Notes: generated by a model from the letters alone, not told the origin. A stretch of DNA of 64,000 nt from Bacteroidales bacterium (GCA_020860445.1 JAJBUH010000138.1:9840-73839), one strand, 5' to 3'. Shown: positions 15,157 to 64,000, counted from the first letter of the stretch. Made by a program: numbers and translations.

Positions 15157-15159
15157 TCT

Positions 15160-16143: not shown

Positions 16144-16165
16144 TAATCCGGGCCACGAACTGGCC

Positions 16166-16306
16166 CGGCACAGTAGCCGCCATACGGACACTATTGGGCT
16201 GTAAACGGCCCGACCCGATTGCCGATTGCCCGGATGGTCCATTTGACCCGGTGGGTACCGATTGCCCGGATGGCCCTTTTGACTTTTGACTTATTACTTT
16301 TGACTT
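16166..16306. repeat. Composite intergenic repeat tract between batA and batB
   Basis: CGGCACAGTAGCCGCCATACGGACAC is related to the 58-bp repeat at 21277. CCGATTGCCCGGATGG(T/C)CC(A/T)TTTGAC occurs twice (16222-16247, 16258-16283), followed by GACTTTTGACTTATTACTTTTGACTT. Confidence 0.8.
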
Positions 16307-16312
16307 AAGTAT

Positions 16313-17353
16313 ATGTTTGATTTTGCAAATCCGCAACTGTTATCCCTGCTGGGAGCCGTGGTGCTCATCGGGCTGCTATTCTGGTGGGCTCAGGTGACGC
16401 GCAAGAATAATTTGCGCCGATTCGGGCGCCTGTCAGTGCTGCAATCGCTGATGCCCGATGCCTCGATCTATACCCCCAGGGTGAAGATTGTGTTGCAACT
16501 GCTGGCGCTCACGGCTCTGGTGTTTGTGCTGGCGCGCCCGCGCAGCGGTGAGAAACAGCCACAGCAGACACGCCTCGAGGGTATCGAGATTATGATTGCA
16601 TTTGACGTCTCCAACTCGATGCTCGCATCAGCCAATGATGACCCCAACGGCATCAGCCGTCTCGACCGCGCCCGCCTGCTGCTCGAGAAACTTATCGACC
16701 GCCTTGATAATGACAAGGTGGGCCTTGTGGTGTTTGCCGGCGAGGCTAAGACCCAGATGCCTCTCACCACCGATTACTACACCGCAAAACTGTATCTGAG
16801 CGAGCTGTCGCCCAAATTGGTGAGGATGCAAGGCACATCAATCACCGACGCCATCAATATGTCGGCTCGCGCCATGAGCGCCGACGACAAGGTCAACAAG
16901 GCCATCATCCTTATCACCGACGCCGAGAACCATGAGGGCGATGCCATCGAGGCAGCCAAGGCAGCTGCCGACAAGGGCATCCAGGTCGATGTGATCGGCG
17001 TTGGCTCGGGCAAAGGCGTGCCTATCCCCATCAACAGCGCCGGCACCGACTATCTGCGCGACAACGATGGCCAAGTGGTGCTTACGACATTTGACCAAGA
17101 GGCTGCCAAGAAGATAGCTGAGGCTGGCAAGGGCATTTATGTCAACGGCTCATCATCCAAGGCCCTCGACGCTCTGACTCAGGCCCTCGATGAGGTGGAC
17201 AAGACAGAATTTAAGAAGGTACAGTACAAGGCCAGCGCCGAGCAGTTCCCCACCTTTGCTTGGATAGCCTTGATTCTGATCGTGGCCGACATCTTCGTGC
17301 TCGACCGCAAGATTAGTTGGCTTAAGGACATCAACTTCTTTACCAAGAAATGA
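16313..17353 (+). CDS. batB: VWA-domain protein BatB
   Basis: VWA MIDAS region (IAFDVSNSM) with terminal TM segments. Confidence 0.88.
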   Translation: MFDFANPQLLSLLGAVVLIGLLFWWAQVTRKNNLRRFGRLSVLQSLMPDASIYTPRVKIVLQLLALTALVFVLARPRSGEKQPQQTRLEGIEIMIAFDVSNSMLASANDDPNGISRLDRARLLLEKLIDRLDNDKVGLVVFAGEAKTQMPLTTDYYTAKLYLSELSPKLVRMQGTSITDAINMSARAMSADDKVNKAIILITDAENHEGDAIEAAKAAADKGIQVDVIGVGSGKGVPIPINSAGTDYLRDNDGQVVLTTFDQEAAKKIAEAGKGIYVNGSSSKALDALTQALDEVDKTEFKKVQYKASAEQFPTFAWIALILIVADIFVLDRKISWLKDINFFTKK

Positions 17354-18093
17354 CTATGAAGCCTATCTATACAATATTAATCCTGTGCGCCGGGTTGGCT
17401 CTGATGTGCTCTTGCTCGAATAAGAACAAGGGAGCCTACGAGTCGACCAAGGAAGAGCGCAACCTGATCAAGAAGGGCAACAAGGAATTTGCCGACAGCA
17501 ACTTTGTGGCGGCTCTGCAGGACTATACCCAAGCCTTGGCTGCCTCGCCCGGCTCTGAGCCAGCCATCTTTGACCGGGCTGCCGCTATATACAATTACGC
17601 CAAGACCCAGGATGGCGGCAAGCGCGACACCCTGATGGCCCAGGCTGTCGAGATTTACGAATCGCTCGGCAACCATGCCTCTGACCTAAAGGTGCGCGAA
17701 AAAGCCAATTACAACCTGGGCAACATCGCCTTTGCCCAACAGGACTATAAGAAGAGCATCGAATACTACAAGCGAGTGCTGCGCAGCAATCCCGCCAACC
17801 AGCGCACTCGCGAGAATCTGCGCGTGGCCCAACTCAAGCTGCCCCCCGAGGATCAGAACCAGGACCAAAACCAGGACCAGGATCAAGATCAGCAAGAGCA
17901 GAATCAAGACCAGCAGCAACAAGAGCAGGAGCAGCAGCAAGACCAGCAGCAACAGCCCCAGCAGCAACAAGAGATGAGCAGCAATGCCGAGCAGATACTC
18001 CAGACTATGCAGAATCGCGAGAACCAGACACGCGAGAATGCGCAGAAAGAGGAGCGTCAGGCCGTGCAGCGCAGCACCGACAAGCCTTGGTAA
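17350..18093 (+). CDS. batC: TPR protein BatC with Q/D/N-rich tail
   Basis: Lipoprotein signal, TPR repeats, then QNQDQNQDQDQDQQEQ... low complexity. ATGA-type overlap with batB. Confidence 0.85.
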   Translation: MTMKPIYTILILCAGLALMCSCSNKNKGAYESTKEERNLIKKGNKEFADSNFVAALQDYTQALAASPGSEPAIFDRAAAIYNYAKTQDGGKRDTLMAQAVEIYESLGNHASDLKVREKANYNLGNIAFAQQDYKKSIEYYKRVLRSNPANQRTRENLRVAQLKLPPEDQNQDQNQDQDQDQQEQNQDQQQQEQEQQQDQQQQPQQQQEMSSNAEQILQTMQNRENQTRENAQKEERQAVQRSTDKPW

Positions 18094-18114
18094 ACCCAAT
18101 ATACTCACCCCCAG

Positions 18115-19947
18115 ATGATGAACTATTTGCGTTTCACTCTCATTATTGCCTTGATAGCCATCGGGCTTGATGCGTCGGCCCAGGCCACCTTTGCCCTCCT
18201 GCAGCCCCGCACGGCTATCGAGGGCCAGAAATTCACGATTACCTTCCGCCTTACCAATGGGCAAGCCAACGCGCCGCAGGCTCCGCAACTCGAAAATTGC
18301 AAGTTTGTCTACGGCCCATCGACATCTACCATGTCATCGACCCAGATCATCAATGGGCAGATGAGTTCGAGTACCTCGATCGACTATACATTTACCTATC
18401 TGGCCGAGAAGGCTGGCACCATCACCATTCCGGCTGTCAGCATCAGCGCCGGTGGCAAGACGCTCAGCTCTAATCCTATGCAGTACACCATCTTGCCTCC
18501 CGATCAATCGAGCCAAGGCCAAGGCTCTGGCTCGTCCAGCACCATGCCCGGCGGCGCAGCTCCGTCTAAAGGCACGAGCCAAATCTCGGCCGATGATATG
18601 TTTGTGCGCATTTCGCTCAACAAGAGCAGTGTCTATGAGCAAGAGGCTGTAGTGGCCACCGTCAAGGTGTACACAAGGTATGAAATCAGCTCGTTCCAAA
18701 TCACCTCGCAGCCTACATTCGAGGGCTTCCTATCTGAGGAACTTGATGTGCCCTCGGGCGTGGAGATGGAGCATTACAATGGCAAGAATTACTACACCGC
18801 CTATCTGAAAAAGTGCATCATCTATCCGCAGAAGGCTGGCACACTCACCATCACCTCGGGCAAATATGATGTGACCCTCGTGGACTATGAGTTGGTGAGC
18901 AATGGCTTCTTCCAGACTCGCCGCCCAGTCGAGAAACATGTGGTGACCCAGAGCAACAGCGCCAAGCTCAATGTTACGGCTCTGCCTGAGCCGAGGCCCG
19001 CATCGTTCAACGGCGCCGTGGGCGACTTCTCGGCATCGGTTGAGATGAAGCCTACCGAACTGCGCACCAACGAAGCCGCCTCATATATAATAAAGGTGGA
19101 GGGCACCGGCAACATTAAGTATCTCAAGACCCCGACACTCGACTTGCCGCCGGGCATCGACCAGTTCACCCCCAAGACTGACATCAACGCCCGATTCACC
19201 GGCAGCGACATGCGCGGCACCTACAGCGTAAACTATACACTGGTGCCGCAAGATCCGGGCACTTTTGAGATTCCCGAGCGCCAATTCTCATACTTTAATC
19301 CCAAGGACAAGAAATACCATACCATCGACCTGCGCGGTTTTGACATCAAGGTGGCTCAGGGAGCCGCTACCATGGCTGTGACTGAGCAGAAGTCCATCGC
19401 CAAGGGCATGACCGACATCTTGCACATCAAGGCCGCAACCGGCAGCCAACTCGTACGTCCGTCGTATGACTTCCGCGCTTGGTGGTATTGGATGCTGTAT
19501 CTGATAGCCGCAGTGGCTCTGATTGTGGTGATATTCATCTATCGCCGCCAGCTCAGGCTGCAGGCTGATGTGCGCGGCCGCAAGTTGGCTCGCGCCAACA
19601 AGGTGGCTGCCAAGAAATTCAAAGCCGCACGCGCCGCTATGGCCGCTGGCGAGGCCGACAAATTCTATGCCGAGCTCAACCGCGCCATGTGGGGATACCT
19701 CAGCGACAAGCTGGGCATTCCAGCCTCGCAGCTCTTGCGCAGCAACATCGCCTCGCAGCTCTCAGCCTACGGAGTAGGGGAGGAGGCCGTTAGCGGCATC
19801 CTCGATATCCTCGACCAATGCGAGATGGCTCGATTCACGCCTCAGCATAGCGAGGCCGAGATGTCAGACCTGTACCGCAAGGCCGAAGGCGCTGTCAAAG
19901 CCATAGAGAACACCAAGGGCGCAAAGCCCCAACGCAACAACCAATGA
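18115..19947 (+). CDS. batD: BatD (oxygen-tolerance protein)
   Basis: 610 aa with a signal peptide, a late TM segment (WWYWMLYLIAAVALIVVIFIY), and operon position. Confidence 0.85.
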   Translation: MMNYLRFTLIIALIAIGLDASAQATFALLQPRTAIEGQKFTITFRLTNGQANAPQAPQLENCKFVYGPSTSTMSSTQIINGQMSSSTSIDYTFTYLAEKAGTITIPAVSISAGGKTLSSNPMQYTILPPDQSSQGQGSGSSSTMPGGAAPSKGTSQISADDMFVRISLNKSSVYEQEAVVATVKVYTRYEISSFQITSQPTFEGFLSEELDVPSGVEMEHYNGKNYYTAYLKKCIIYPQKAGTLTITSGKYDVTLVDYELVSNGFFQTRRPVEKHVVTQSNSAKLNVTALPEPRPASFNGAVGDFSASVEMKPTELRTNEAASYIIKVEGTGNIKYLKTPTLDLPPGIDQFTPKTDINARFTGSDMRGTYSVNYTLVPQDPGTFEIPERQFSYFNPKDKKYHTIDLRGFDIKVAQGAATMAVTEQKSIAKGMTDILHIKAATGSQLVRPSYDFRAWWYWMLYLIAAVALIVVIFIYRRQLRLQADVRGRKLARANKVAAKKFKAARAAMAAGEADKFYAELNRAMWGYLSDKLGIPASQLLRSNIASQLSAYGVGEEAVSGILDILDQCEMARFTPQHSEAEMSDLYRKAEGAVKAIENTKGAKPQRNNQ

Positions 19948-35891: not shown

Positions 35892-35925
35892 AAAACACAT
35901 TTTTTTACTCCTTACACGGCAAAAA

Positions 35926-35957
35926 TTTGGTGTTTCCAGATTTTTGCCGTAATTTTG
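35926..35957 (+). promoter_or_regulatory. Promoter P1 of the defence operon (cassette copy 1)
   Basis: TTTG (35926-35929), a 20-nt spacer, then TAATTTTG (35950-35957). The spacer is itself part of the hairpin ACGGCAAAAATTTGG/CCAGATTTTTGCCGT. Confidence 0.65.
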
Positions 35958-35960
35958 TGG

Positions 35961-36358
35961 TGCGCTGGAGGCTGGCGCGGCTCGAGAGCGAGCCTTAGGC
36001 TCCGGCGCTGACTTTACATACCGGCGTTTACTTTAGCGCTTAGTTCTTGTCATCGTGAAACTTCGCAACTTTCAAGAGACAGGCAAGGCTGGCAGTGAGT
36101 AGATGCCCCTGTTGTGGTATATACCACCGCGTGACTATCTGTCCCTCCCGGGGGATGGGTAGATCTGGTGCATATATATCCCACGCGTGGGGCCCTCTCA
36201 TTGCTCATCCTCCTTTTACGGGCAATGCGAAGGCCTCACAGTGTGGGATGAGCACGAGTGAGGATTCCCACGCTTTGTGTAAAGTGAAAAATGAAGAGTG
36301 AATAATGAAAAATGGCCTGGCCATGGGAGTCGGCTGGTCAAATCTTGCAATGCCTTAA
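35961..36358 (+). promoter_or_regulatory. Long structured 5' leader or candidate cis-regulatory RNA upstream of mod
   Basis: ~390 nt with no credible ORF, ~53% GC and dense palindromes/stems (35979-35994, 36114-36127, 36180-36191). Nested helices 36185-36191/36267-36273 and 36202-36210/36246-36254. Confidence 0.35.
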
Positions 36359-38170
36359 ATGCCAATCGACCGACCCCATCTGATAGAGCGCATTAAGAGC
36401 ATCGAGGGACTAACTCCTGACGAGCGCAGCCAACTGCTTGAGATGCTGCGCACTACGCCCAAATACGGCCTGGTGTGGGAGGACAAGCCCGAAGATGCCG
36501 AGCGCTTGCTCGAAGACAATCTGCCAGTACTCACCGAGGTGAAGGAGCGATACATCGCCGGTTCATCACCCGACAGCCCCAACCATATTCTCATCGAGGG
36601 CGACAACCTCCACGCCCTAACAGCCCTCACCTACACCCACGAGGGCAAAATCGACGTCATCTATATTGACCCGCCGTACAATACAGGCAACAAGGATTTC
36701 TGCTACAACGATAGCTATGTAGATGCGGAAGATTCTTTTAAACATAGTAAGTGGCTATCTTTCATGGTTAAACGTCTTCGTCTGGCCAAAAGACTTTTAT
36801 CAGAGAAGGGTGTAATCTTCATCTCCATTGACGATAATGAACAAGCACAATTAAAATTGCTTTGTGACTCTATCTATGGTCAAAATAATTTTTTGGGTAA
36901 CGTTATTTGGGAAAAAACAGATAGTCCACGAATGGATGTTAAGGGTTTCTATACTCGCCATGATTATATTTTAGTCTACAGAAACGAAGAGTTTACCTTA
37001 AAAAGAGTTCCCAATAAGGAAGTTCCAGCTCATTATAACAGGAAAGATGAAAAAGGTAGGCTCTACTACACCAAACCTCTAAGATTAATGGGAGGGCATC
37101 TAAGTGAAAGTTTGTTTTATTCTATCACAGCTCCCGATGGGACAATAGTCTTCCCCTATGAAAAAGACGGGAAAAAAGGAGGCTGGAGATGGAGTCAACA
37201 AAAATTCATTGATGAAAACGAGAGAATTGAATGGGTAAATGGTAAAAATGGATGGACACCTTATTTCCGTATTTATGCTGAAAATCTAAAGGAAGTTCCA
37301 GCGGCAACATTGTGGCCTTTTACAGAAGTAGGAAGCACTCGTACTGCAAAAGCAGAGTTCAACCAAATAATTGAGGATGGAAGATCTTTTAATTATCCCA
37401 AACCCACTTCTTTGATTAAATACATTGAGGTCATTGCCTCTGAACAAAATGCGACCATCCTCGATTTCTTTGCCGGCTCTGGCACTACCCTCCATGCCAC
37501 TATGCAACTTAATGCTGAGGATGGAGGCAAGCGGCAGTGCATCCTCGTGACCAATAACGAGAATGGCATCTGCGAGAATGTGACCTATGAGCGCAACAAG
37601 CGTGTCATCAACGGCTATACAACTCCTAAAGGCGTAGCCGTTGAGGGGCTGCATAACAATTCATTGAGATACTACCAGACCGATTTTGTGCCTCGCAAAA
37701 AGACCATGGCCAATATGCGCCGATTGGTCAACCTCGCTACTGACCTGCTTTGCATCAAGCATGATTTGTATGATGAGGCTCGATTCTTTGGCAAGAAGCT
37801 AAACAAGGATGTGGCTCGATTTTTCAGCAATGGCAAGAAACAAATGCTGATTCTCTATGATGAGCGAGCCGTTGACCCAGTGGCTGAGATTTTAGAGCAT
37901 CAAGCCGTGGATTCGCCAATCATAGTCTATGTATTCTCTCCCGACAATTACGCCTACGATGAGGAGTTTGCCGCCGTGGCCGACAAGGTAAACCTCTGCG
38001 CCCTCCCAGCCGCCATCTATGCTGCCTATCGCCATGTTCTCCCCAAAAAGAAACTCTATCACAAAGAGACACTGCAGGAGCCAACCGCTACCCCATCACC
38101 CAGCCCTCAAGGAATAGAGCAACTTCTGTTTGATCCCGATGAAGAGGAGGGGCCGGATGGTAGTGCGTAG
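36359..38170 (+). CDS. mod: Type III-like (beta-class) N6/N4 DNA methyltransferase, Mod
   Basis: Motif IV DVIYIDPPYNTG precedes motif I FFAGSGTT, with a long central variable region between them. 603 aa. Confidence 0.88.
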   Translation: MPIDRPHLIERIKSIEGLTPDERSQLLEMLRTTPKYGLVWEDKPEDAERLLEDNLPVLTEVKERYIAGSSPDSPNHILIEGDNLHALTALTYTHEGKIDVIYIDPPYNTGNKDFCYNDSYVDAEDSFKHSKWLSFMVKRLRLAKRLLSEKGVIFISIDDNEQAQLKLLCDSIYGQNNFLGNVIWEKTDSPRMDVKGFYTRHDYILVYRNEEFTLKRVPNKEVPAHYNRKDEKGRLYYTKPLRLMGGHLSESLFYSITAPDGTIVFPYEKDGKKGGWRWSQQKFIDENERIEWVNGKNGWTPYFRIYAENLKEVPAATLWPFTEVGSTRTAKAEFNQIIEDGRSFNYPKPTSLIKYIEVIASEQNATILDFFAGSGTTLHATMQLNAEDGGKRQCILVTNNENGICENVTYERNKRVINGYTTPKGVAVEGLHNNSLRYYQTDFVPRKKTMANMRRLVNLATDLLCIKHDLYDEARFFGKKLNKDVARFFSNGKKQMLILYDERAVDPVAEILEHQAVDSPIIVYVFSPDNYAYDEEFAAVADKVNLCALPAAIYAAYRHVLPKKKLYHKETLQEPTATPSPSPQGIEQLLFDPDEEEGPDGSA

Positions 38171-38295
38171 CACGATGCTTGTTTATTAACCCCACATGGA
38201 GTGCGTAGCACGGAATGTGGGGTATGCAATTCCTTTCTTCTCTTAAGAAGAGTGCGTAGCACGGCCCTGAAGCAACGTATATATTTTGACTCACA

Positions 38296-39699
38296 ATGAT
38301 TAAGAAACTACGATACCAACAGCAAGCCATCAAAGAACTGGTAGAGAAAGCCCTAAAGCTGCTCCACTCCCTGGGCGACCGCAAAAAGCTGATATTCCAA
38401 GCTCCAACCGGCTCGGGCAAGACTGTCATGATCAGCGAAGCCATGGCCCAACTGATGAGCGAGATAGACACCGACCCTACACTCACGCCACCGACATACA
38501 TTTGGGTTGCTCCCAACAAGCTGCATCAGCAGAGTCTCGAGAAGATGAAAGACTTCTTTGACGAGACACATACCCTGCGAGCCACTACCTACGATGGGTG
38601 CAACCACTCGGTAGGTGACCTCCTGCCCGAAGGACAAATCCTATTTGTCAACTGGGAGAGCATCAATAAGGACAAAAACATCCTGGTTCGCGATAGCGAG
38701 GGTTCCGCCTCACTCTACGACCTCACCGACCGCACCAAGGAGGAAGATATCCCCATCATCGTCATTATCGATGAAGAGCACCTATACGCTGGAGCCTCGG
38801 CCATACAGGCGCAAAAGGTGCTTAAGCGCATCAACCCTAAGTTGGAAATCCGCATCTCGGCCACGCCCAACAAGCAAGACCTGCACGAGAAGGTGACGGT
38901 GCAACGCAACGATGTCATCGCTGAGCAGATGATCAAGAAAGGCATCGTGCTCAATCCAGCACTCGATGTCACTCGCGAAGATGTCAATGGCCTCACCGAA
39001 TTGCTCATCGACCATGCTTTGGCAAAAAGAGATGAACTGGCCGAAGCATACCGCAAGCAAGGCAGTCGAGTGAATCCTCTATTGCTAATTCAACTGCCAA
39101 ATGATGGCTCAGAAAAAGTAACCGAGGAGGAAACTCGCATTATCAATTCAGTAAAGACGGTTCTCGAGGTGAAATACGATATCACCACTACCAATGGGCT
39201 GCTCGGCATCTGGCTGTCGAAAGAGAAGGAGAATCTTGATGGTATTGAGCGAGAGGATAATCTTACCAAAGCTCTGCTTTTCAAGCAAGCCATAGCCCTT
39301 GGTTGGGACTGCCCCCGAGCCGCTGTATTGTTGATTTTCCGCAAGATGGAGAGCATGCAATTTACGATGCAGACCGTGGGCCGCATCCTGCGTATGCCCG
39401 AGCATAAGCATTACATGGATCCGCAGCTCAACCAGGGATATGTCTATACCGACCTCAGCAAGGACAAAATCAGCATCGTAGCCGATGATATTGACTATTT
39501 CGCTAAAAACGAAACTGCCTACATCAAAGATGGTCTGGAAAACGTAACTCTCAAATCAGTCTACCGCGAACGCCTCAGCGAGGAACGCAACCGCCTACTG
39601 CCCAATTTTGGAGAATTGCTGCGTATGCATTTCACCAAGAAACTCCTGGGCCAAGCGCATCAGCAGACCCTTGATTTCCAACTTTTTGAAGACGAATGA
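38296..39699 (+). CDS. SF2 helicase/ATPase, Res-like N-terminal module
   Basis: FQAPTGSGKT (motif I), VIIDEEH (motif II), QTVGRILRMPE (motif VI). Confidence 0.8.
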   Translation: MIKKLRYQQQAIKELVEKALKLLHSLGDRKKLIFQAPTGSGKTVMISEAMAQLMSEIDTDPTLTPPTYIWVAPNKLHQQSLEKMKDFFDETHTLRATTYDGCNHSVGDLLPEGQILFVNWESINKDKNILVRDSEGSASLYDLTDRTKEEDIPIIVIIDEEHLYAGASAIQAQKVLKRINPKLEIRISATPNKQDLHEKVTVQRNDVIAEQMIKKGIVLNPALDVTREDVNGLTELLIDHALAKRDELAEAYRKQGSRVNPLLLIQLPNDGSEKVTEEETRIINSVKTVLEVKYDITTTNGLLGIWLSKEKENLDGIEREDNLTKALLFKQAIALGWDCPRAAVLLIFRKMESMQFTMQTVGRILRMPEHKHYMDPQLNQGYVYTDLSKDKISIVADDIDYFAKNETAYIKDGLENVTLKSVYRERLSEERNRLLPNFGELLRMHFTKKLLGQAHQQTLDFQLFEDE

Positions 39700-40658
39700 T
39701 TATGAGCCGCAAAGATTTATTTGGAGATATTGAAGCCAACAGAGCCTCAGCCGAAAAGCGTGGTATCAACTTTGATGTAGAGAAGATACAAGTCACACTG
39801 CTCAAAGATGTCGAGGTTGAGGGCGATGCACTTGAGGGCAACGAAATAATAAGTGTTGAAGGCAGCAAGCGAGTGAAATATTCACAGCATGCCACAGAGC
39901 TTGACCGTGTGTTCAATCAGTTCCTTTGGGATATGCTTAATGGCTACGAGCGCAAGCATACATTGGAATCTCTACACAATTATGTGCTGGAGATAATGGA
40001 AAAGCTATTCGGCCTCGATGGGTTTGAAGCCGTTAAGGTGATACTCTACCATAAGAATCGGCCAAAGTTTGAAGAGATAATACGCGATGCCTTGGCTGAA
40101 AATCTTGTCGAAGTACGTAGACGCAGACAGAACGCCCAAAAGCGGGCTTTCAAAGAGGTGCCTTGGGCTGTCCCCGAGACTCGCGACTACAATACCTCGA
40201 CTCACCGTACTGTGCCAGAGGCCGAGGCTCATGCGCTGCAGCCATTCTATCGGATGAATCAGGCTTCGCAGCCAGAGATAAGGTTTGAGCATTTCTTGGA
40301 AGACAACCGAGAGTACATTGATTGGTGGTACAAAAACGGCGACGAAGGCATGCAGCACTATGCCATCGCCTATATGGAGGGCGACAATCCAGCCCTGTTC
40401 TATCCCGACTTTGTGCTGCGCATGGCCAACGGCCAAGTGTTCATCTTTGACACCAAGACCAACGGCAGCGACCCTTATGCCGCTGCCAAGCACAACGCCC
40501 TTGTTGCCTATATGGAGGATCCCAACAACCCCAATCTGATGGGAGGAATCTTAATCCAAGATGGAGACCTATGGCGTTACTCGCTTGGCACCATCGAGAA
40601 TACCGATGACATCACTGGATGGATAGCATTCCACCCCTCAGACTACAAAAAATCCTGA
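39696..40658 (+). CDS. PD-(D/E)xK nuclease-like protein, Res-like C-terminal module
   Basis: YPDFVLRMANGQVFIFDTKT signature near the C-terminus. The ATGA overlap with the helicase ORF is at 39696-39699. Confidence 0.6.
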   Translation: MIMSRKDLFGDIEANRASAEKRGINFDVEKIQVTLLKDVEVEGDALEGNEIISVEGSKRVKYSQHATELDRVFNQFLWDMLNGYERKHTLESLHNYVLEIMEKLFGLDGFEAVKVILYHKNRPKFEEIIRDALAENLVEVRRRRQNAQKRAFKEVPWAVPETRDYNTSTHRTVPEAEAHALQPFYRMNQASQPEIRFEHFLEDNREYIDWWYKNGDEGMQHYAIAYMEGDNPALFYPDFVLRMANGQVFIFDTKTNGSDPYAAAKHNALVAYMEDPNNPNLMGGILIQDGDLWRYSLGTIENTDDITGWIAFHPSDYKKS

Positions 40659-40663
40659 AAATT

Positions 40664-40936
40664 ATGCCACGACAAAATCCCAAACAATCGGCCCAACAAC
40701 CGCGCTCGCAGCGCGGTGGCCTGGACCATACCTTTTTGCATTACGGCATACGCCAACCCGACCTTGAGGTAATCCTTGACCTATGCGACAGCCATGGCAT
40801 CGACCGAGATTGGCTGCGCGATGAGGTATTAAAAAACTTCCATGCAAAGAAAGTCGACGCCTTCGAAATATCAGATGCCGATGTAGAGCGTGTGCTAAAT
40901 GATGCCTTAACCAAACTACCAACCCCAATCCAATGA
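40664..40936 (+). CDS. Small (90 aa) operon protein of unknown function
   Basis: ATG lies 5 nt after the upstream stop, and its stop overlaps the next start (ATGA). No recognisable motif. Confidence 0.5.
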   Translation: MPRQNPKQSAQQPRSQRGGLDHTFLHYGIRQPDLEVILDLCDSHGIDRDWLRDEVLKNFHAKKVDAFEISDADVERVLNDALTKLPTPIQ

Positions 40937-42927
40937 TTATCACTCGCGTAAAAGCTCATAACTACAAGACTTACCTCGATCTTGACCTCGATCTCACTGT
41001 CGAGGCCGAGCGGCCCATCATCTTGATTGGAGGCATGAATGGGGGAGGCAAGACTACTCTCTTTGAGGCTATCTATGGGGCTCTGTATGGGCTGAATATT
41101 GCCAACGAACGCCAATTCCAAGAGCTCCTCAACGCCGGAGCTCCCCCTACTGAGAAACCTGAGATTGTGCTTGAATTGTCCTTCAAAGGTCTTGTCACTG
41201 GCACGGAACAAAAGTATAACTTGCGACGCACTTATAGAGTGATGTCGAGCAGGCCCGTCGAGAATGTGCGCCTCAACCTCAATGGCAATGTCGTAAGCTA
41301 CGGTACCCAGACCCCAGCCGGTGAACGACACCGCTATGAGCAGATGCTCAACAAGATAATCAAGGCCAACCTGCCCCAGGAATTGAGCAAATACTTCTTG
41401 TTTGATGCCATGCAAAGCAGCGAATTGCTCAAGGAGGGAGTGTTCTCCCAAATCATTCGCGACAATATCCAGAATGTGATGGGATTTAACAAATACCTTA
41501 TGCTGAAGCATGCTGCCGAGAAGCTGCATCAAAAGAAGGCAGCCGAGCGAATAAAAGCCAAAAAGGAGCGTGAGGAATACGAAAGGCTATGCGCCGAAAA
41601 AGAACAGAAGGTGCAAAGGAAAACTGCTCTTGAAGCTGCCTTAGACCAATCTTCGCGCCGACTGCAGGAAATGCAAGAAGCTTATGATGCTGCAAGGGAG
41701 GGTGCTCGGAAGGATGCCAATGCTCGCCAACGAATCTCTGAAATTGATGCTAAAATCAACGAAGCTAATTCAAGTGCCGAGCGCTATTGCACTGAGGCTA
41801 AAGATTTGGTTGACAACCTTGAGGGTAGCGTATTTCTACCAAAGCTCGCTTCGCAACTCTCACAAGAAATTGCCAACATCGTTCGCATAAAGGATAGCCT
41901 AAAGAAAGAGCCGATTGAATCACCCCAGCAGTTGCGCGATATCACTCACCGAGTATTGGACCTGCTAAGGCAAATGCAACTGTTGGATGCCAATGCCAAC
42001 GAAGAAGACATTATCGCTCAGCTTATCTCCAGGCGTTGCGCCGATGGCAAAGATGACCCCTACGCCATATTGGAGGACGATGACGTAGCTGCGCTTGTAG
42101 GACTGGTCAACAGTGGCGGTCATAACACATTCCCTCACTTGAGTGAATCGAAGATGGCTTGCGAGACAAAACTTGGCAATCTCGATGAATGGCATCGCCA
42201 ACGCTATTTCCTACAGCAGTCAATAGATGGCAATGATCAAGAGGTAATCAATAACTATGAGACGGAGGCTGAAAACCAACGCAACATTGAAATAGAGATT
42301 GAGAATCTCACTGTCGAAATACAACGTCTCGACAATCGCATACATACGTTTGACATTCAGATTCAGGAAGAGCCTGACTTGAAATTTGATACTCTGGTCA
42401 AACTGCGTCCTTTCTTTGAGGACGTAGCTAAGACTTTGCTTCAGCGCAAGCGCCAACAGATCGAGACACAGATGCAAGAGCAACTCAACATATTGCTCCT
42501 ATCATATAAGGGCCACATACAGCGAGTAGAGATCAGCGAGAATCTTGAGGATTTCTCAATCAAGATATTCCACTCGGCTGGCAATGAGATTGCGCTCAGC
42601 CAACTCAACGCCGCATCTAAGCAAATATTCATCCAGGTGCTGCTCAAAATACTGCGCAATCTTGGCGATTACAATCCCCCTGTGATGATTGACACGGTAA
42701 TGGGCGTGCTCGACAATGAGAGCCGCGATGCGCTGATGCAAGAGTATTTCCCACAGCTTGCCGACCAGACTATACTGCTTTGCACTACATCTGAGATTCG
42801 CAAGGATTCGGACTACAAGCAAATCGAGGCTTTCATCTCCAAGACCTATACATTGCAGCGCGATGTGGCATTGCAGCGCACCGAGGTTGTGGAGGGATAT
42901 TTCGGAACACCGCTTAACAGAGATTGA
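40933..42927 (+). CDS. DndD-like SMC/ABC-type ATPase
   Basis: GGMNGGGKTTL Walker A, YFLFDAMQ, a long coiled-coil-like middle, LSQLNAASKQ signature-like, PPVMIDTVMGVLD Walker B/D-loop. Compare DndD IIDTPLGRLD, recalled from memory. Confidence 0.7.
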   Translation: MIITRVKAHNYKTYLDLDLDLTVEAERPIILIGGMNGGGKTTLFEAIYGALYGLNIANERQFQELLNAGAPPTEKPEIVLELSFKGLVTGTEQKYNLRRTYRVMSSRPVENVRLNLNGNVVSYGTQTPAGERHRYEQMLNKIIKANLPQELSKYFLFDAMQSSELLKEGVFSQIIRDNIQNVMGFNKYLMLKHAAEKLHQKKAAERIKAKKEREEYERLCAEKEQKVQRKTALEAALDQSSRRLQEMQEAYDAAREGARKDANARQRISEIDAKINEANSSAERYCTEAKDLVDNLEGSVFLPKLASQLSQEIANIVRIKDSLKKEPIESPQQLRDITHRVLDLLRQMQLLDANANEEDIIAQLISRRCADGKDDPYAILEDDDVAALVGLVNSGGHNTFPHLSESKMACETKLGNLDEWHRQRYFLQQSIDGNDQEVINNYETEAENQRNIEIEIENLTVEIQRLDNRIHTFDIQIQEEPDLKFDTLVKLRPFFEDVAKTLLQRKRQQIETQMQEQLNILLLSYKGHIQRVEISENLEDFSIKIFHSAGNEIALSQLNAASKQIFIQVLLKILRNLGDYNPPVMIDTVMGVLDNESRDALMQEYFPQLADQTILLCTTSEIRKDSDYKQIEAFISKTYTLQRDVALQRTEVVEGYFGTPLNRD

Positions 42928-44525
42928 CCATGAAACTTAATTTCGATGATTTGAGGCAAGCCGAAGGGCTGCTCGATATGGTGATGCCCCTCAAGGATAA
43001 GATTGAAGAGCGCCTAAGATTGAAAAATGCTCCAGAAGGGAACAAATTGCCAACTCTCACTGGCAACCAAATTCTGCGCATCTGCATGATAGCGGGATTT
43101 TCTATGACTGAGCCCAGAAATCTGGCTGAGGTCAGAGAGACGCAGTTATCACGACAGAACAATCGATTCTACTCAACCTTCTTCAATCGCAACAACACCA
43201 AAGCCCTGTTTGAAGCTTTGATCAAATTGCGATATAAGGACATCATTGAGGATTGGGAAGAGCCACGAATTGCTTCACGCATCATAGCTTATGAGGCTAC
43301 TCGTGGGTTCCACTATCTGATGGATGAGAGTAATCTCAATTCTTTTCTTTTCGCATCGTCTTCGGGACGCGGATTGTCGCGCTCGATCCCCGCACTTGAC
43401 TTAATCATTGGCCATTATGACGGTGATGATGAGATGGAGGCAGACTTGAATCTTAATTCTCGCGCTGTGCCTAATGCTCAGATTATTATCGCTGGTTCTA
43501 CTGGTTCGGGCAAGTCAAATCTCATTTCGGTGATTATTCAGCAATTCCGCACCCTGTCTTCTGAGACTGCCTATCCGGTCAATTTCTTGCTCTTTGATTA
43601 CAAGGGCGAATTTTCTGATCCTGCTAATCGCCGTTGGCTCACTTATTTCGACATTGATGCCAGCGCATTGCTCGATCCGATGGATAAGCCTTTGCCATTC
43701 AACCCTTTCAGGGATTTCAGAGGCAAATCCCAGTCAGAACTGAATATCTATTCTACGGAATTGACTTCGGCTCTCGCCGCTCTCGACAATGTAGTACTAA
43801 GCGCTAAGATGAGCAGCCGTCTGAGCGAGGCCATCATCAAGGCGTATGCCCATAATCAGAAAGCGCCAATTACATTTGAGAAACTGCTCAATGCTTATCG
43901 AGGTCTGTTGCCAAAGGCTGAGACCGAAGACAGCATCACGGCTGTGCTGTCTCAATTGGTGCGCAATCACCTCTTTGATACCGAGGACCGGACCAATCTA
44001 ATCAAGAATTGCTTTATCGTAAAGCTGGACAAATACCCTAAGGACGGTCCTCTTGCCAAAGCCATCGTATATTTCCTGATCTCTAAGCTGAATGATATAT
44101 ACCAGACGCTTGAACCTCAAGCCACAACTGACGATGTGGTGGAAATACGCCATTTCACTATCATTGATGAGGCTCACTATATGCTCAGTTTTGAGAATAA
44201 GCCACTGCGCGAATTGATACGTGTTGGCCGCAACAAGGGACTTAGCATTATTCTGGCCACGCAGGATATGGCAAGCTATAGAGCTAATAACAATGGCGGT
44301 TTCGACTTCTACGCCAATGCGCAATACCCTCTCATCATGAAGCAGCAGACGATTGATGATTCGGTGCTTAAGGGAATCTTCGGTGTCACGGGGCGCGAGC
44401 TCGCCGAGCTGCGCTCAGCCATCTCCAACCTGCAGCTCGGAGAGCTTATCATCAAGGACCAAAATGCCGCCATCCTCGACATCGGCAAGCCCTACAAAAA
44501 GATCAAAGTGAATCGATTGATATAA
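42924..44525 (+). CDS. HerA/FtsK/VirB4-type P-loop ATPase (DUF87-like) with an N-terminal ~170-aa extension
   Basis: AGSTGSGKSN Walker A, FDYKGEF, TIIDEAHYML Walker B, ILATQD. Confidence 0.72.
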   Translation: MTMKLNFDDLRQAEGLLDMVMPLKDKIEERLRLKNAPEGNKLPTLTGNQILRICMIAGFSMTEPRNLAEVRETQLSRQNNRFYSTFFNRNNTKALFEALIKLRYKDIIEDWEEPRIASRIIAYEATRGFHYLMDESNLNSFLFASSSGRGLSRSIPALDLIIGHYDGDDEMEADLNLNSRAVPNAQIIIAGSTGSGKSNLISVIIQQFRTLSSETAYPVNFLLFDYKGEFSDPANRRWLTYFDIDASALLDPMDKPLPFNPFRDFRGKSQSELNIYSTELTSALAALDNVVLSAKMSSRLSEAIIKAYAHNQKAPITFEKLLNAYRGLLPKAETEDSITAVLSQLVRNHLFDTEDRTNLIKNCFIVKLDKYPKDGPLAKAIVYFLISKLNDIYQTLEPQATTDDVVEIRHFTIIDEAHYMLSFENKPLRELIRVGRNKGLSIILATQDMASYRANNNGGFDFYANAQYPLIMKQQTIDDSVLKGIFGVTGRELAELRSAISNLQLGELIIKDQNAAILDIGKPYKKIKVNRLI

Positions 44526-44528
44526 CCG

Positions 44529-44569
44529 CTACGGCAAAAAATCTGGTGAAAACCAGATTTTTGCCGTAG
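44529..44569 (+). terminator. Operon terminator hairpin, sequence-related to the promoter cassette
   Basis: CTACGGCAAAAAATCTGGT-GAAA-ACCAGATTTTTGCCGTAG followed by TTATTTATT. It shares CCAGATTTTTGCCGTA with P1. Confidence 0.7.
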
Positions 44570-44830: not shown

Positions 44831-44943
44831 TATTGTATTTATTTAGTTATTGGTACAAAATACTGTTTGTATTTTAACGAAGAGATATCGCTGAATGTTT
44901 TTGTATGGCTCGCTCTCGAGCCGCGCCAGCCTCCAGCGCACCA

Positions 44944-44975
44944 CAAAATTACGGCAAAATTCTGTAAACACCAAA
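44944..44975 (-). promoter_or_regulatory. Promoter P2 (cassette copy 2, inverted)
   Basis: Minus strand TTTG (plus-strand CAAA 44972-44975), a 20-nt spacer, then TAATTTTG (plus-strand CAAAATTA 44944-44951). Confidence 0.6.
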
Positions 44976-45033
44976 TTTTTTGTAAAATTAAACCTCAGAG
45001 GGGGCTAAAAGGGAAAATGGTTTTGATTTTTGA

Positions 45034-45087: not shown

Positions 45088-45807
45088 ATGGGACAATTTA
45101 TCAATGTAGGAAATGCTCGCTTCCGCAGAGCACTGGACAGCAAATATGTTGACAAGACTCAGCTCATTGCGGCTGTCAACAGCACCCTCTTTAAGGAGTG
45201 GAATATGAGTTGCGTCACTCGTTGCCGTAGGTTTGGAAAATCTATGGCAGCTTCGATGCTCTGCGCCTATTATGATAAGTCCTGTGACTCTAGGGAATTG
45301 TTCAAAGGATTGTCTATTGCTAAAGATCCATCCTTTGAAAAGCATCTAAACAAGTATCCCGTGATTTTCATTGATATGAGTATAATCATATCGAGATTCG
45401 GTCATGATGCGGATATAGTAGATAAGATGCAAAAAGAGATAAGCAATGAGCTTTTAGAGGTCTACCCCGAGGTGAAGATGCGCGATGAGGATGACTTAAT
45501 GGATTTGATCCTGCGAATCGCTAATCACACGGGAGAGCCATTCCTTATGATTATCGATGAGTGGGATGCGATATGTCGCGAGTTCAAAAAGAGCGAAGCC
45601 CCTATGGACAAATATATCACCCTGCTCCGTCGCTTTTTCAAAGGCAGCAATGCTCCGCAAGCTTTCATAGGAGCTTACATCACCGGGATTCATGCGCTTA
45701 AAGAATATAATGACTTATTGATCCCAAACAATTTTTGGGAATATACTGAAGATCAGATGCTCAATCTCAAACCTACGACCCAGAAACCAAGAAGCATACA
45801 TGCTTGA
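45088..45807 (+). CDS. AAA-ATPase-like domain protein (DUF1703-type), N-terminal half only
   Basis: RCRRFGKSMAASML P-loop-like and IIDEWD. It is 239 aa versus 549-584 aa for paralogues in this window, and the PD-(D/E)xK C-terminal half is absent. Confidence 0.6.
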   Translation: MGQFINVGNARFRRALDSKYVDKTQLIAAVNSTLFKEWNMSCVTRCRRFGKSMAASMLCAYYDKSCDSRELFKGLSIAKDPSFEKHLNKYPVIFIDMSIIISRFGHDADIVDKMQKEISNELLEVYPEVKMRDEDDLMDLILRIANHTGEPFLMIIDEWDAICREFKKSEAPMDKYITLLRRFFKGSNAPQAFIGAYITGIHALKEYNDLLIPNNFWEYTEDQMLNLKPTTQKPRSIHA

Positions 45808-46347: not shown

Positions 46348-48102
46348 CTATATGTGGCATTTGCCTTTGGCGATGAGGCGGTGGTTGCGGAAGACGAGGT
46401 AAAGGGGGATGAGGGTGGTTTGGGCCAGGAGGGGGCTTTTGTCCAGGTGGGCATCGGCGATGTATTGGCGCAATTGCTTGCAAGCGTCCTTGATTTTCGC
46501 ATCAGGAGTCTTTGCTCGCGCACTCATGTGCTTCAGCTCGATGAGGTAGCTATAGCGTGCGGGATTGTTGGGAACATTCTTAGGCACCAAAAGAATATCG
46601 CAATACCCCTCGCCCAATTCGAGCTCGGGCCATACGTCGTAATAATCATTTTGGCACAGCACCCCGCGCAGAAAGGCTTGCTCATTAGGCTCATCGTTGT
46701 TGCGAAGACTGGAATACTGCTGACAAAGCTTGCCTAATTCATCGGCCAGTGGTTCCCATTTGCCCTTGACGGCAGCCTCGGCAATCAATTTGCTCAATTG
46801 GCGCAACTGCCCATTCAACACCAAGCCCTCCTCCTCAATCACTCGCAGCATATATTGCAGATACAAGTCTCCCATTGTCTTATTGGGCACAATCAGCATG
46901 CGGCGTCCATACTCATCGCAAGGACCGTAAGTAAGGGTACCGTAATAGAACAATAGGCTCTTGAAATTCTTTTCCTCGCCAGCGCTTCCGGCTTGAAAAG
47001 CAATTTCGACATTGCCAAGAGTATAGCCTTTGGAGCAAATTTCTTTGACAATGGACATACGCTCTTTGCGATCACCCAAGTCATCGGACATAACCAAGAA
47101 GTTGAGCTTCTCCGGATCTACACGAGCACTGGTATCGATTAGAGGCTGTGGGGCGCGTCCTCTCGTGACCAGCGAGTCGATATAGCGTACCACCATCTGA
47201 GTATTGTAGATAGTTGGCGCAACGCCATAGCACTCCTCGGCGAAGCAAAAATTGTCATACCATGGCTTCATCTCTGCGATGATATCGTCGGCAGTGCGCT
47301 CAATGGCCCCTTCGGTTCGATAATACTCTATCATATCCCTAAGTTCGGTCTCGGTAACACCTATGGCTTGATCAAACCAAGGCATAAGCGATACTATGTC
47401 GGCTATGTTAAAGCCCGATGTCAGGTCATCATAAGTGGCTGGGCTGACGCCCGTCAAGAAAATGCGATCAAAGGTTCCTTTCAGTCCGCTGAAAAAAGCC
47501 CGATAGAAACCCTCGCCATGGGTAATATTCTCATGGGCCTTTACTCCACGAGCCGCGAGCACGGTGTTGGTGAAATTATCATACTCATCAATGGTGAGAA
47601 AAATCTTTTGGCCCTTATTATGGGCCATCTCTACCAGTAGGGTGATGGCATTCTTAAGATCCCTTACCGAAAGAATCTCTGCGCGGTCTGATTGGGTGAA
47701 TACCCAATCATATTTTTTCAGGAACTCGGATATCCGTATACGGCAGTATTCATTAAAAATAGACTCAAGCTTATCGATATTGGCATTATTGACATGCGAA
47801 AAGTCGAAGCGCAACGCCAAATACTGATTGGCCCACTTGGTTGGGCGCTGCCCTATGTCCAAGTCGCCAAACAACTCTTGGAAGCGGTCCTTCAGATTGA
47901 TGTCATAATAAGCCATTAACATGCTCGAAAAGAGAGTCTTGCCCATGCGTCGGGGCCTAACCAAAAGGATGAACTTCTTCTGGCGCTCTAATTCGCGTAT
48001 GTATCCGCTCTTATCGAAGAAATAGTAGTTTTCTTCCCTAAGGGTCACAAAATTATCGACATCGGTGGGGACTTGCTTCATATTCCATGGATTTTGCCAC
48101 AA
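46348..48102 (-). CDS. AAA-ATPase-like / PDDEXK_9 (DUF1703-type) protein
   Basis: LLVRPRRMGKTLF P-loop-like, LTIDEYD, and a C-terminal nuclease-like YCDILLVP...YLIELKH. 584 aa. Confidence 0.8.
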   Translation of the reverse strand: MWQNPWNMKQVPTDVDNFVTLREENYYFFDKSGYIRELERQKKFILLVRPRRMGKTLFSSMLMAYYDINLKDRFQELFGDLDIGQRPTKWANQYLALRFDFSHVNNANIDKLESIFNEYCRIRISEFLKKYDWVFTQSDRAEILSVRDLKNAITLLVEMAHNKGQKIFLTIDEYDNFTNTVLAARGVKAHENITHGEGFYRAFFSGLKGTFDRIFLTGVSPATYDDLTSGFNIADIVSLMPWFDQAIGVTETELRDMIEYYRTEGAIERTADDIIAEMKPWYDNFCFAEECYGVAPTIYNTQMVVRYIDSLVTRGRAPQPLIDTSARVDPEKLNFLVMSDDLGDRKERMSIVKEICSKGYTLGNVEIAFQAGSAGEEKNFKSLLFYYGTLTYGPCDEYGRRMLIVPNKTMGDLYLQYMLRVIEEEGLVLNGQLRQLSKLIAEAAVKGKWEPLADELGKLCQQYSSLRNNDEPNEQAFLRGVLCQNDYYDVWPELELGEGYCDILLVPKNVPNNPARYSYLIELKHMSARAKTPDAKIKDACKQLRQYIADAHLDKSPLLAQTTLIPLYLVFRNHRLIAKGKCHI

Positions 48103-53826: not shown

Positions 53827-53858
53827 TTTGGAGATTCGAGATTTTTGCCGTAATTTTG
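53827..53858 (+). promoter_or_regulatory. Promoter P3 (cassette copy 3) of the Panacea TA pair
   Basis: TTTG (53827-53830), a 20-nt spacer, then TAATTTTG (53851-53858). AAAAATTTGG and TTTTTGCCGTAATTTTGTGG are identical to P1. Confidence 0.6.
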
Positions 53859-61968: not shown

Positions 61969-62730
61969 ATGGCAACTAAAATAAACTTGATACAATCCGA
62001 TGTTCTGCCAGGTGGAGTGATGACTGCTTCCTGGCTCGAGAGCAAGCATATCAGCCGCAGCGAACAGGCCCAGTATGTAAAGTCGGGATGGCTGGTGCGC
62101 ATAGACAAAGGCATTTATCGCCTTAGGTCAATGGCGCCTACTCTCTTTGGCTCTCTTGCTTCCCTAAAAGAGCAACAAGCCTTTAATTATCGTATCGGAG
62201 CGACATCGGCGTTGGACTTGCAAGGCTATACCCATTACATAACTTTGGGAAAACCTCAAATGTATTTATACACTTCGATAGACAGAAGACTTCCCAAATG
62301 GATGTGGGCACAAGAGTGGGGAATGGACCTAAGAGAATCTTGCTCCAAGATGTTTTCTGGTACCAAGGGAGTGACACAAGTAGAAACTGCTGGAGTTTCT
62401 CTCGCTGTATCTTCTCCGGAGCTGGCCATAATGGAATGTTTAGCCCAATATCCAGAAAATCATTCTCTGATGGATATCTACTATTCTATGGAATCTTTAA
62501 CCACATTGCGTCCAGCCCTTGTGACTAAACTATTAGAGGAGTGTACTTCGGTAAAAGTAAAACGCTTATTCCTATATATGGCTGATAAAGTTAAACACCC
62601 TTGGTTTAACCGCCTTGACCTCTCTAATGTCTCTTTAGGCAGAGGCCCACGCAGCTTCGCAAAGGGAGGAGTAAAGATACCCAAATACGACATAATAATA
62701 CCAAAAGAACTATCAAGATACGATGACTGA
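61969..62730 (+). CDS. AbiEi-family (type IV TA) antitoxin-like transcriptional regulator
   Basis: N-terminus ...GGVMTASWLESKHISRSEQAQYVKSGWLVRIDKGIYRL is typical of AbiEi N-terminal wHTH proteins. 253 aa. Confidence 0.7.
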   Translation: MATKINLIQSDVLPGGVMTASWLESKHISRSEQAQYVKSGWLVRIDKGIYRLRSMAPTLFGSLASLKEQQAFNYRIGATSALDLQGYTHYITLGKPQMYLYTSIDRRLPKWMWAQEWGMDLRESCSKMFSGTKGVTQVETAGVSLAVSSPELAIMECLAQYPENHSLMDIYYSMESLTTLRPALVTKLLEECTSVKVKRLFLYMADKVKHPWFNRLDLSNVSLGRGPRSFAKGGVKIPKYDIIIPKELSRYDD

Positions 62731-63103: not shown

Positions 63104-63331
63104 CTAGGCCATATCTGAGGGGAGGAAGCGGCTGTGGTATTCGAGGCTGAGGTCGAGGAAGAAGTCATGGTCGAGGGCCGCGCTGATGCGCATCAGCTGC
63201 TCGGTGTCGATGCTGCGCATAGCAAATATTTTGTACACATGGGTGCGGGTGCAGCAAATCTGGGAGGCGAACCAGCTGACGCCGTATCGCTTCTCGCGCG
63301 ATATCTGCTCTATACGATTACCTATGTGCAT
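63104..63331 (-). CDS. XRE-family HTH transcriptional regulator
   Basis: IGNRIEQISREKRYGVSWFASQICCTRTHVYKIFAMRSIDTEQLMRISAAL has an HTH_3-like layout. 75 aa. Confidence 0.7.
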   Translation of the reverse strand: MHIGNRIEQISREKRYGVSWFASQICCTRTHVYKIFAMRSIDTEQLMRISAALDHDFFLDLSLEYHSRFLPSDMA

Positions 63332-64000
63332 AAAAAACGTGGGTCCGGTCGATTGCTCGTCCCACTATCTTAGGCTCTCGCATTGCCTTCATCAGAGAAC
63401 GAGCAACGCAGAAGCCCACGTAGGGTATACAGACACTGATCCGCACCCCTGCATGAGTGGGCGAACCAATGGCAGCAGATATACCGCCGAGGGCATCTAC
63501 CGCTGCCGCATCCTTGCCGATTAGTGAATTTGCGAGATTCAAGATAGTCAAGAACGTGGCGTAAGTAAACGCCTATTATGTAATATGCGCCGCCCGCATC
63601 TCCCACTCTGTGGCTTCTGCTTGACAGACGCATTGCAAAGTTACGAAATTAATTTTAATTCTATGAAGATTCTGAAGGTTTTTTTGAGAGGAGTAACCTT
63701 ATACAGTCTAATTGTATCCCATCGCAATACACAGCGTATCTTGATAAACGACATGCATTAACATTTAGTAGACATTTTTCAACGTAACTTTGCACCATCA
63801 TTTTCACATAAATTAAATTTGTGAGTGACAATTTTTGACCTACAGAGATAAAACTTTCAAAATTATCCATAAAATGATTAGTAACCAACCTATTCTCAAA
63901 CTGATGGCTCTGCTATTCGTAGTGCCCAGAGCTCCTGCACTCCTTTGGCCCATAATATTTGGCCAGGATGCGGCTTTGATAATGTCACTGTACGAATAAA

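Follow-up and report, generated by a model that had tools for sequence, protein, structure and literature searches.

A real, conserved and probably defensive cassette of five components was found at positions 36359-44525 of a 64,000-nucleotide (nt) stretch of DNA from a Bacteroidales bacterium (GCA_020860445.1 JAJBUH010000138.1:9840-73839), the whole of which is called the window here. In our judgement, the locus is likely to be a single methylation-based restriction system composed of two co-transcribed modules. The first module (a structured leader, the methyltransferase Mod and the restriction protein Res) would be a type III-like restriction-modification (R-M) system. The second would consist of the small protein Sp-DndD, a DndD-like ATP-binding cassette (ABC) ATPase and a fusion of DndE with a HerA/FtsK ATPase. 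An earlier note on this DNA had proposed an undescribed system of six genes. The number of components is five, and the pairing of DndD with a DndE-HerA/FtsK protein has been described (PMC10853773; Rakesh, Aravind, Krishnan, NAR 2024, citing Krishnan et al. 2020), while Pfam holds a family for the small protein. The cassette family has been computationally noticed already and is still unnamed. New here are the swaps of the Mod target-recognition domain (TRD) without a change of the DndE domain, the two recombining modules and a covarying leader RNA of ~250 nt.

Gene content and domain architecture

All six same-strand open reading frames (ORFs) of the earlier note were recovered at their coordinates (Table 1). 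Its domain calls, i.e., Mod, superfamily 2 (SF2) helicase, PD-(D/E)xK nuclease, DndD-like ATPase and HerA/FtsK, proved right by profiles, structure and motifs, and the motifs quoted in it were all present and nearly invariant across 51-82 homologues. Gene content, conservation and intact motifs are direct observations, all catalytic motifs of the cassette being invariant or nearly so. Mod matches PADLOC MTase_III (9.7e-97) and Pfam N6_N4_Mtase (1.7e-36). It is a beta-class enzyme with DPPY before FxGxG, and these motifs are invariant in 51 sequences.

The second and third ORFs, counted as separate components in the earlier note, correspond to one Res; of the 67 loci having both halves, 65 encode it in one ORF. 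Res-N is a ResIII/DEAD SF2 helicase (Pfam ResIII 3.4e-19, PADLOC REase_III 1.7e-17) aligning to the N-terminal ~440-460 residues of the single-ORF Res of 780-797 amino acids (aa), with helicase motifs I, II, III and VI conserved. Res-C covers the C-terminal part of this protein in the alignment; its own matches are weak, reaching the C-terminus only of REase_III (1.2e-4) and a BPTD_3080 restriction endonuclease. The PD-(D/E)xK residues D705, D719 and K721, numbered on the concatenated ORF2 and ORF3 (787 aa together), are conserved in 65/67. Both domains of the one-polypeptide type III Res are present with intact motifs, here on two overlapping ORFs. ORF2 and ORF3 are a lineage-specific split of one Res gene.

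The split could mean that the window copy is a decaying remnant, in which a frameshift in Res killed restriction and left an orphan methylase with relics. ORF2 and ORF3 do span 2363 nt, one short of an ORF of 787 codons, and the relatives have a single ORF. The same split is, however, also found in locus L008 (Muribaculaceae bacterium Zag1, the closest relative) and in no other locus. It lies in a variable acidic inter-domain linker, an ATG overlapping the stop, and the nuclease and helicase motifs are intact. Moreover, the ratio of non-synonymous to synonymous change (dN/dS) between the window and L008 is 0.035 for Res-N and 0.041 for Res-C, at dS of 0.53 and 0.82, and no stop codons have appeared. 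Both halves are under purifying selection. The low dN/dS and the split shared with L008 point to a functional two-polypeptide Res rather than a decaying pseudogene, and a decayed window copy is highly improbable. A sequencing error or pseudogene as the origin of the split was rejected on the same two observations, dN/dS being ~0.04 in both halves. In another locus (L087, 700-2987), Res is broken differently.

The fourth ORF had been described as free of recognisable motifs and belongs to the Pfam family Sp-DndD (PF20306). In the window, the match scores 21 bits (E 3.6e-4; gathering score 27.2). The orthologues of L002 (B. fragilis YCH46, AP006841.1) and L005 match PF20306, and the match is clear on the B. 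fragilis and Victivallales homologues. The conserved core spans residues 16-86, with the pattern HYGIR..DL..I...C.....D..W.

ORF5 matches PADLOC DndD over its full length (4.2e-65) and PbeC (5e-56). Against TIGR03185, the DndD equivalog model, it scores 188.8 bits, under the cut-off of 245.85. Across 72 sequences, its Walker A, signature and Walker B-like motifs do not vary. Neither CxC nor CxxC, as in a Zn hook, occurs in ORF5, whose only cysteines are at 220, 286, 369, 410 and 617; the protein is therefore placed with DndD and not with the CxC/PbeC clade.

As for ORF6, the earlier reading as HerA/FtsK only had missed a DndE-like N-terminal domain. The profiles matched are DUF87/FtsK, the C-terminal part of DndH (PADLOC, 1e-22, positions 1328-1641/1678) and mad8. 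The AlphaFold model of the full-length protein (predicted local distance difference test, pLDDT, 81) has the DndH C-domain 7es4 as best PDB match (E 3e-21, TMt 0.85, 2.9 A; TMt is the TM-score normalised by target length), followed by HerA, VirB4 and TrwB. The Walker A and Walker B motifs are conserved, as are R436 and Q447, which correspond to the arginine finger and the sensor-1 Q of PMC10853773. Modelled separately (pLDDT 83), the first 155 residues form two strand-helix-helix units, and a search of 350,542 PDB chains with them ranks the DndE structures 4lrv, 7x4e and 5wtu first (prob 0.96, TMt 0.64-0.73, weak E 0.26). PF08870 (DndE) was found in 5/20 homologous N-termini (best 5.7e-6), and a sister clade at 27% identity carries PF08870 and DUF87 and is annotated as "DndE family protein". 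The N-terminal model, the homologues and the sister clade together indicate that ORF6 is a DndE-HerA/FtsK fusion.

The genes overlap or sit a few nt apart. Of three ATGA start/stop overlaps reported earlier, those at 39696-39699 and 40933-40936 stood, and the third site (42924-42927) reads TTGA. The homologues align from the ATG at 42930, 2 nt past the DndD stop, which makes it the likely start of ORF6 and gives a protein of probably 531 aa. The earlier note was also correct on the gap of 5 nt at 40659-40663 and the Mod-Res spacer of 125 nt. This spacer region contains three exact direct copies of AGTGCGTAGCACG (38162-38263, + strand), the first spanning the Mod stop codon. The spacer of L008 is 39 nt with a single AGTGCGTAGCACG copy, and the window carries an 86-nt repeat expansion.

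Table 1 Features of the cassette and its surroundings (window positions unless another locus is named)
Feature	Position	Strand	Remarks
Bacteroidetes-type promoter	35926-35957	+	TTTG-N20-TAATTTTG; overlaps a 15-bp-stem hairpin (35916-35950)
5' leader	35958-36358	+	~400 nt; conserved structured core 36023-36270 (~250 nt)
ORF1, Mod	36359-38170	+	603 aa
Mod TRD	36899-37438	+	residues ~181-360; central variable block
ORF2, Res-N	38296-39699	+	467 aa
ORF3, Res-C	39696-40658	+	320 aa
ORF4, Sp-DndD	40664-40936	+	90 aa; alternative 105-aa form from 40619
ORF5, DndD-like ABC ATPase	40933-42927	+	664 aa
ORF6, DndE-HerA/FtsK	42930-44525	+	531 aa (533 aa if read from 42924)
ORF6, DndE-like double ribbon-helix-helix domain	up to ~43388	+	from predicted structure and homologues
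ORF6, HerA/FtsK ATPase domain	~43389-44525	+	from predicted structure and profiles
Terminator-like hairpin after last gene	44529-44569	+	-29.2 kcal/mol, z = -7.3
Inverted-repeat right arm	44904-44980	-	77 nt; 96% complementary to 35921-35997
PF09820/PDDEXK_9 flank genes	45088-45807, 46348-48102	-	
PF09820/PDDEXK_9 flank gene, L008	1409-2980	-	
PF09820/PDDEXK_9 flank gene, L015	39-1749		
Leader core, related loci	L008 3188-3433; L013 1204-1465; L015 2885-3145; L020 3114-3364; L028 1961-2227; L084 2320-2558		others besides

Conservation, module exchange and a proposed mechanism

One genome per species was scanned for relatives of ORF6. They turned up in 379 genomes, and the top 80 loci were retrieved. 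The synteny is directly observed: every related locus with sufficient DNA upstream has the genes in the order Mod-Res-Sp-DndD-HerA. The hosts are mostly Bacteroidales, with further cassettes in Victivallales, an Opitutae bin, Chitinophaga, Flavobacterium and Cytophagales, in unrelated flanks. The cassettes of B. fragilis YCH46 and of a Victivallales metagenome-assembled genome, for instance, read N6_N4_Mtase, (RhuM), ResIII of 787-797 aa, Sp-DndD, AAA_23 (666 aa) and DUF87 (526 aa). A single orthologue sequence was found in 2,426 blocks of the assembly collection. On plasmids, a tblastn search of ORF6 against 72,556 sequences gave distant DptH or DUF87 matches only.

In two sister-clade loci, the order is a helix-turn-helix (HTH) gene, an Eco57I-type N6 methylase, variable cargo, Sp-DndD, DndD and DndE-HerA; one of the two also has an HSDR_N nuclease-type domain with the methylase, and DndC was found in neither. 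The slot between Mod and Res is variable as well. A RhuM-family gene of ~1 kb often lies there in the relatives (L001-L004 6321-7403; also, e.g., L010, L023 and L027), and none is present in the window cassette. That slot is taken in the sister clade by DarT/Macro, or by AAA_15 with HNH cargo (cf. L088 5101-5469). An insertion of ~3.3 kb separates Sp and DndD in L014 (4664-8005).

The modules co-evolve internally, as the pairwise identities directly show. In the first block, the correlation is r 0.79 between Mod core and Res and r 0.92 between Res-N and Res-C; in the second, it is r 0.88 between Sp and DndD and r 0.92 between DndD and HerA. The joint at which recombination occurs lies between Res and Sp. 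Across it, modules are swapped, with Sp, DndD and HerA 97-100% identical and Res 50-58% identical, as in L015 compared to L014 (0.97-0.99 for Sp, DndD and HerA, 0.5-0.58 for Res).

This exchange bears on the possibility that two independent neighbours, a type III R-M system and a separate three-gene infection sensor, share a promoter and a defence-island slot. Such a sensor could respond to anti-restriction proteins or invading DNA ends and act by abortive infection or by a block of replication or segregation. The recombination of the modules as units fits this explanation, as do the pairing of module 2 with another R-M type in the sister clade and the report, cited in PMC10853773, that PbeABCD, which follows a similar logic, stops viruses without detectable DNA degradation. 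Against it, profile searches found no nuclease, toxin or modification domain in module 2, and neighbouring genes overlap or lie a few nt apart. Furthermore, in loci with enough upstream DNA, no intact Sp-DndD/DndD/DndE-HerA set was found without an adjacent same-strand methylase and nuclease. The earlier note had named homologues of ORF4-6 free of Mod/Res as a finding that would speak against one system; no intact case turned up, and the sister clade has its Eco57I-type methylase. The exception is L039, where just the last ~135 codons of DndD (9594-10001) remain before HerA, and which looks like a decay remnant. The earlier argument for one system instead of two neighbours is upheld by a gene order kept in several phyla with different flanks, and two independent neighbours seem unlikely.

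A single system would work as follows. Mod would mark self DNA, probably as N6-methyladenine (m6A), at a site set by its exchangeable TRD. Res, with its SF2 helicase and PD-(D/E)xK domain, would be the sole nuclease and would cut unmarked DNA, acting in the lineage of the window as two translationally coupled polypeptides. Since module 2 has neither nuclease nor modification enzyme, it must act via module 1 or on the DNA itself. A coiled-coil DndD dimer and the DndE ribbon-helix-helix domain may engage DNA regardless of sequence, and the ring-forming HerA/FtsK motor may then pump the engaged DNA. Jointly, DndD, DndE and HerA would find unmodified incoming DNA or feed it to Mod/Res, or license Res. 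The small Sp-DndD protein may serve as regulator or adaptor. This mechanism, the most likely one, is drawn by analogy from Rad50/SMC-type ATPases, the DndDE of phosphorothioation (PT) systems and the HerA-type C-domain of DndH.

The TRD of Mod offers a view on how specificity is divided between the modules. The TRDs of the window and L008 share 17-33% identity, their flanks 93-100%. More generally, TRD identity is 15-46% between cassettes that agree at 97-100% in the DndE domain, HerA, DndD and often Res. This decoupling of Mod specificity from DndE is directly observed. Because the TRD is swapped while the DndE domain stays unchanged, specificity is attributed to Mod and not to the DndE domain. 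In PMC10853773, DndE was proposed in general to set a specificity matched to the modification enzyme; for this family, the swaps apparently argue against such a role of the DndE-type domain. The G+C content over 36600-37400, i.e., across the TRD, is 0.375-0.42 compared to 0.48-0.53 elsewhere in the operon, which is consistent with a horizontally exchanged domain.

Module 2 might instead aid modification, scanning DNA for efficient or processive methylation by Mod and so limiting self-restriction. DndD-DndE has indeed been proposed as a scanning core that recruits modification enzymes including methylases (PMC10853773). The constancy of the DndE domain under TRD swaps and the structural kinship of the ATPase, whose nearest relative is the restriction-side DndH, both speak against it. 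Type III Mods also methylate unaided. We consider a role confined to modification quite unlikely.

Several points weigh against the single restriction system, although the three rival explanations are less well supported. Defence function, complex formation, methylation and the flow of information between the modules are deduced from sequence. Synteny was surveyed in two distant loci and, out of 379 genomes, in the 80 closest. Free recombination between modules 1 and 2, with partners of only ~50% identity accepted, speaks against close co-adaptation of their proteins, and the functional link could be a looser one. The N-terminus of the window's ORF6 gave no Pfam match by sequence alone; its assignment to DndE comes through the predicted structure, with the weak Foldseek E value given above, and through homologues.

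A broader idea is offered tentatively, and we lean towards doubting it: Sp-DndD, DndD and DndE-HerA might be a portable, sequence-agnostic, ATP-driven DNA clamp-and-pump serving unrelated R-M systems, expression in part of the family being run by a rod-like leader RNA of ~250 nt that replaces the HTH gene.

Relation to known systems

The cassette was earlier said not to be canonical Dnd/Ssp, BREX or DISARM, which agrees with the absence of PT, BREX and DISARM genes from the operon and the ten flanking ORFs scanned; two homologous loci were alike in this. In particular, neither the PAPS-reductase-like DndC nor the cysteine desulfurase DndA was found in the operon, the ten flanking ORFs or the homologous neighbourhoods. 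In the literature, isolates with this kind of cluster had no PT dinucleotides and are cited solely as a PT negative control (PMC12914056). The gene content as described for those loci and their habitat are the same as here, the identity of the family being taken from the description. A PT system was rejected on the lack of DndC and DndA, the sub-threshold TIGR03185 score and this report, and no phosphorothioation would be expected from the cassette.

The closest described relatives are the "clade-3" HerA/FtsK neighbourhoods of PMC10853773. As there, a DndD-like ATPase adjoins a protein with N-terminal DndE and C-terminal HerA/FtsK, the HerA domain is nearest to the DndH C-domain, and Sp-DndD (PF20306) lies just upstream. 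The "clade-3" features present here are hence the DndE fusion, the adjacent DndD ATPase (in all loci), the DndH-related HerA and Sp-DndD. In contrast to "clade-3", no PT genes occur in the cassette or in any relative examined. The module is partnered by a type III-like Mod/Res or, in the sister clade, by an Eco57I-type methylase, and Res is split in the window.

Like classical, EcoP15I-like type III R-M systems, the cassette combines a Mod of the beta class, its TRD in the centre, with a Res made of an SF2 helicase and a C-terminal PD-(D/E)xK nuclease. However, it has three extra obligate neighbour genes and a structured leader or an HTH gene upstream, and its Res is shorter (787 aa), divergent (REase_III E ~1e-17) and split. 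The three extra conserved genes suggest that the two-gene type III description is incomplete for this cassette.

PbeABCD has been re-annotated as a nuclease-helicase, a small protein, a CxC ABC ATPase and DndE, sometimes with methylases (PMC10853773). The logic and gene order are the same as here, and ORF5 matches the PbeC models and ORF2, weakly, PbeA. Nevertheless, PbeABCD has an HKD nuclease, a CxC Zn hook and a stand-alone DndE, whereas the cassette has PD-(D/E)xK, no CxC and a fused DndE; its methylase is a type III Mod, and there is no link to PT. The ATPase domain of ORF6 is nearest to the C-domain of DndH (7es4 E 3e-21; PADLOC DndH 1e-22), which recalls DndFGH/DptFGH. Unlike DndFGH, the cassette has no DndF, DndG or DndH N-terminal domains, and ORF6 has 531 aa compared to ~1,700 for DndH. 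The eight-gene MADS of P. aeruginosa is likewise a multi-gene defence system with self/non-self discrimination by an N6 methyltransferase. ORF6 matches mad8 (2.6e-17) and, marginally, mad3, and ORF2 has a marginal, P-loop-only match to mad8 (E 0.0082). Among the PADLOC matches listed, no mad model occurs for the other proteins of the window. Compared to the mad1-mad8 operon, both the architecture and the host phylum differ here. Membership in PbeABCD, DndFGH or MADS was rejected on the defining features.

A Hma-named model was not among the PADLOC matches listed, which is weak negative evidence, with 25 matches each considered for ORF1 and ORF5. PADLOC has no single family or model set covering the cassette.

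Leader RNA, promoter and flanking DNA

The leader upstream of Mod is better conserved than the gene itself: identity between the window and L008 is 94% in the leader, whereas the initial 540 nt of Mod reach 83%, with 66% for third positions of codons. By iterated nhmmer, the leader core was found 5' of Mod in 14/47 loci, with 64-158 nt between its end and the ATG. The core of the Prevotella/Segatella subgroup folds into a long hairpin, in whose 88 pairs 96% of cells are paired. Double-sided changes affect 16 pairs, compared to 9.1 +/- 1.7 in shuffled alignments (0/500 reach 16) and 0-4 in slid controls. The fold of the window leader has z = -3.9. The fold contains many G-U pairs, which point to strand-specific folding.

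An XRE-type HTH gene (HTH_3) lies directly 5' of Mod in 11 other loci, and leader and HTH gene occur together in none. The leader looks like an alternative, RNA-based controller in place of the HTH gene. Other identities were considered for it. A small ORF or degenerate HTH gene was rejected, the 68-aa ORF at 36095-36301 not being kept in L008, and coding is countered by the strand-specific G-U pairs and the compensatory changes. For a known RNA, no Rfam family matched even up to E 10. A conjugation-type single-strand promoter is not supported by the context, as no relaxase genes adjoin L015 or L020.

Extra leader-like copies lie away from Mod. In the window, one is at 63359-63574 (- strand), just 5' of a 75-aa ORF (63104-63331, -) and near an AbiEi gene (61969-62730). 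Another, at L084 619-862 (+), lies 5' of a pair of small ORFs, the product of the second being XRE-type HTH-like by eye. With such copies, the element seems portable among mobile or defence loci.

The single upstream promoter proposed earlier fits the Bacteroidetes consensus TTTG-N19-21-TAnnTTTG, a pattern found at 14 places in the window where 0.45 would be expected; a sigma-70 and terminator scanner is uninformative for this phylum. The full consensus lies ~65-75 nt 5' of the leader core, a conserved position, in 10 of the 14 leader-carrying related loci. A further related promoter copy is at 53827-53858. The strong terminator hairpin claimed downstream of the last gene is supported by a very stable fold (Table 1). 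The promoter hairpin and the terminator hairpin (44531-44567) are variants of one palindrome (ACGGCAAAAAT..TGGTG....CCAGATTTTTGCCGT).

The 77-nt inverted repeat (35921-35997/44904-44980) brackets the cassette, each arm carrying a promoter motif that points inward. L008 has a single copy, between a divergent AAA-ATPase gene and the Mod leader. The repeat pair suggests an inversion or duplication in the lineage of the window, and the comparison with L008 indicates what would be a local rearrangement beside the AAA-ATPase_like/PDDEXK_9 gene. Transposon ends were considered; no transposase is present, the promoter lies inside the repeat, and L008 points to rearrangement.

AAA-ATPase_like (PF09820)/PDDEXK_9 genes flank the cassette repeatedly in different genera (Table 1). 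Of the two in the window, the nearer has been reduced by deletion to a remnant of 239 aa; in L008, the gene is intact with 523 aa. In B. fragilis YCH46, the flanks (529-2168, 13610-19787) hold mobilisation genes (NikA-like, relaxase) on one side and, on the other, a Gabija-like pair (OLD-family ATPase, UvrD-like helicase), HipA and an HTH gene. The surroundings of that cassette are a mobile defence island.

The family is common in gut Bacteroidales, yet it has neither a name nor a model in the defence finders. The leader and its mutual exclusivity with the HTH gene point to RNA-based control of R-M establishment. The TRD swaps amount to a natural experiment on a role of DndE-type domains in setting target specificity, and the cassette is a test case for DndD/DndE scanning ATPases and captured HerA/FtsK pumps without phosphorothioation. 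If the portable clamp-and-pump were true, it would represent a distinct class of SMC/HerA-assisted restriction, with type III-like and Eco57I/IIG-like forms.

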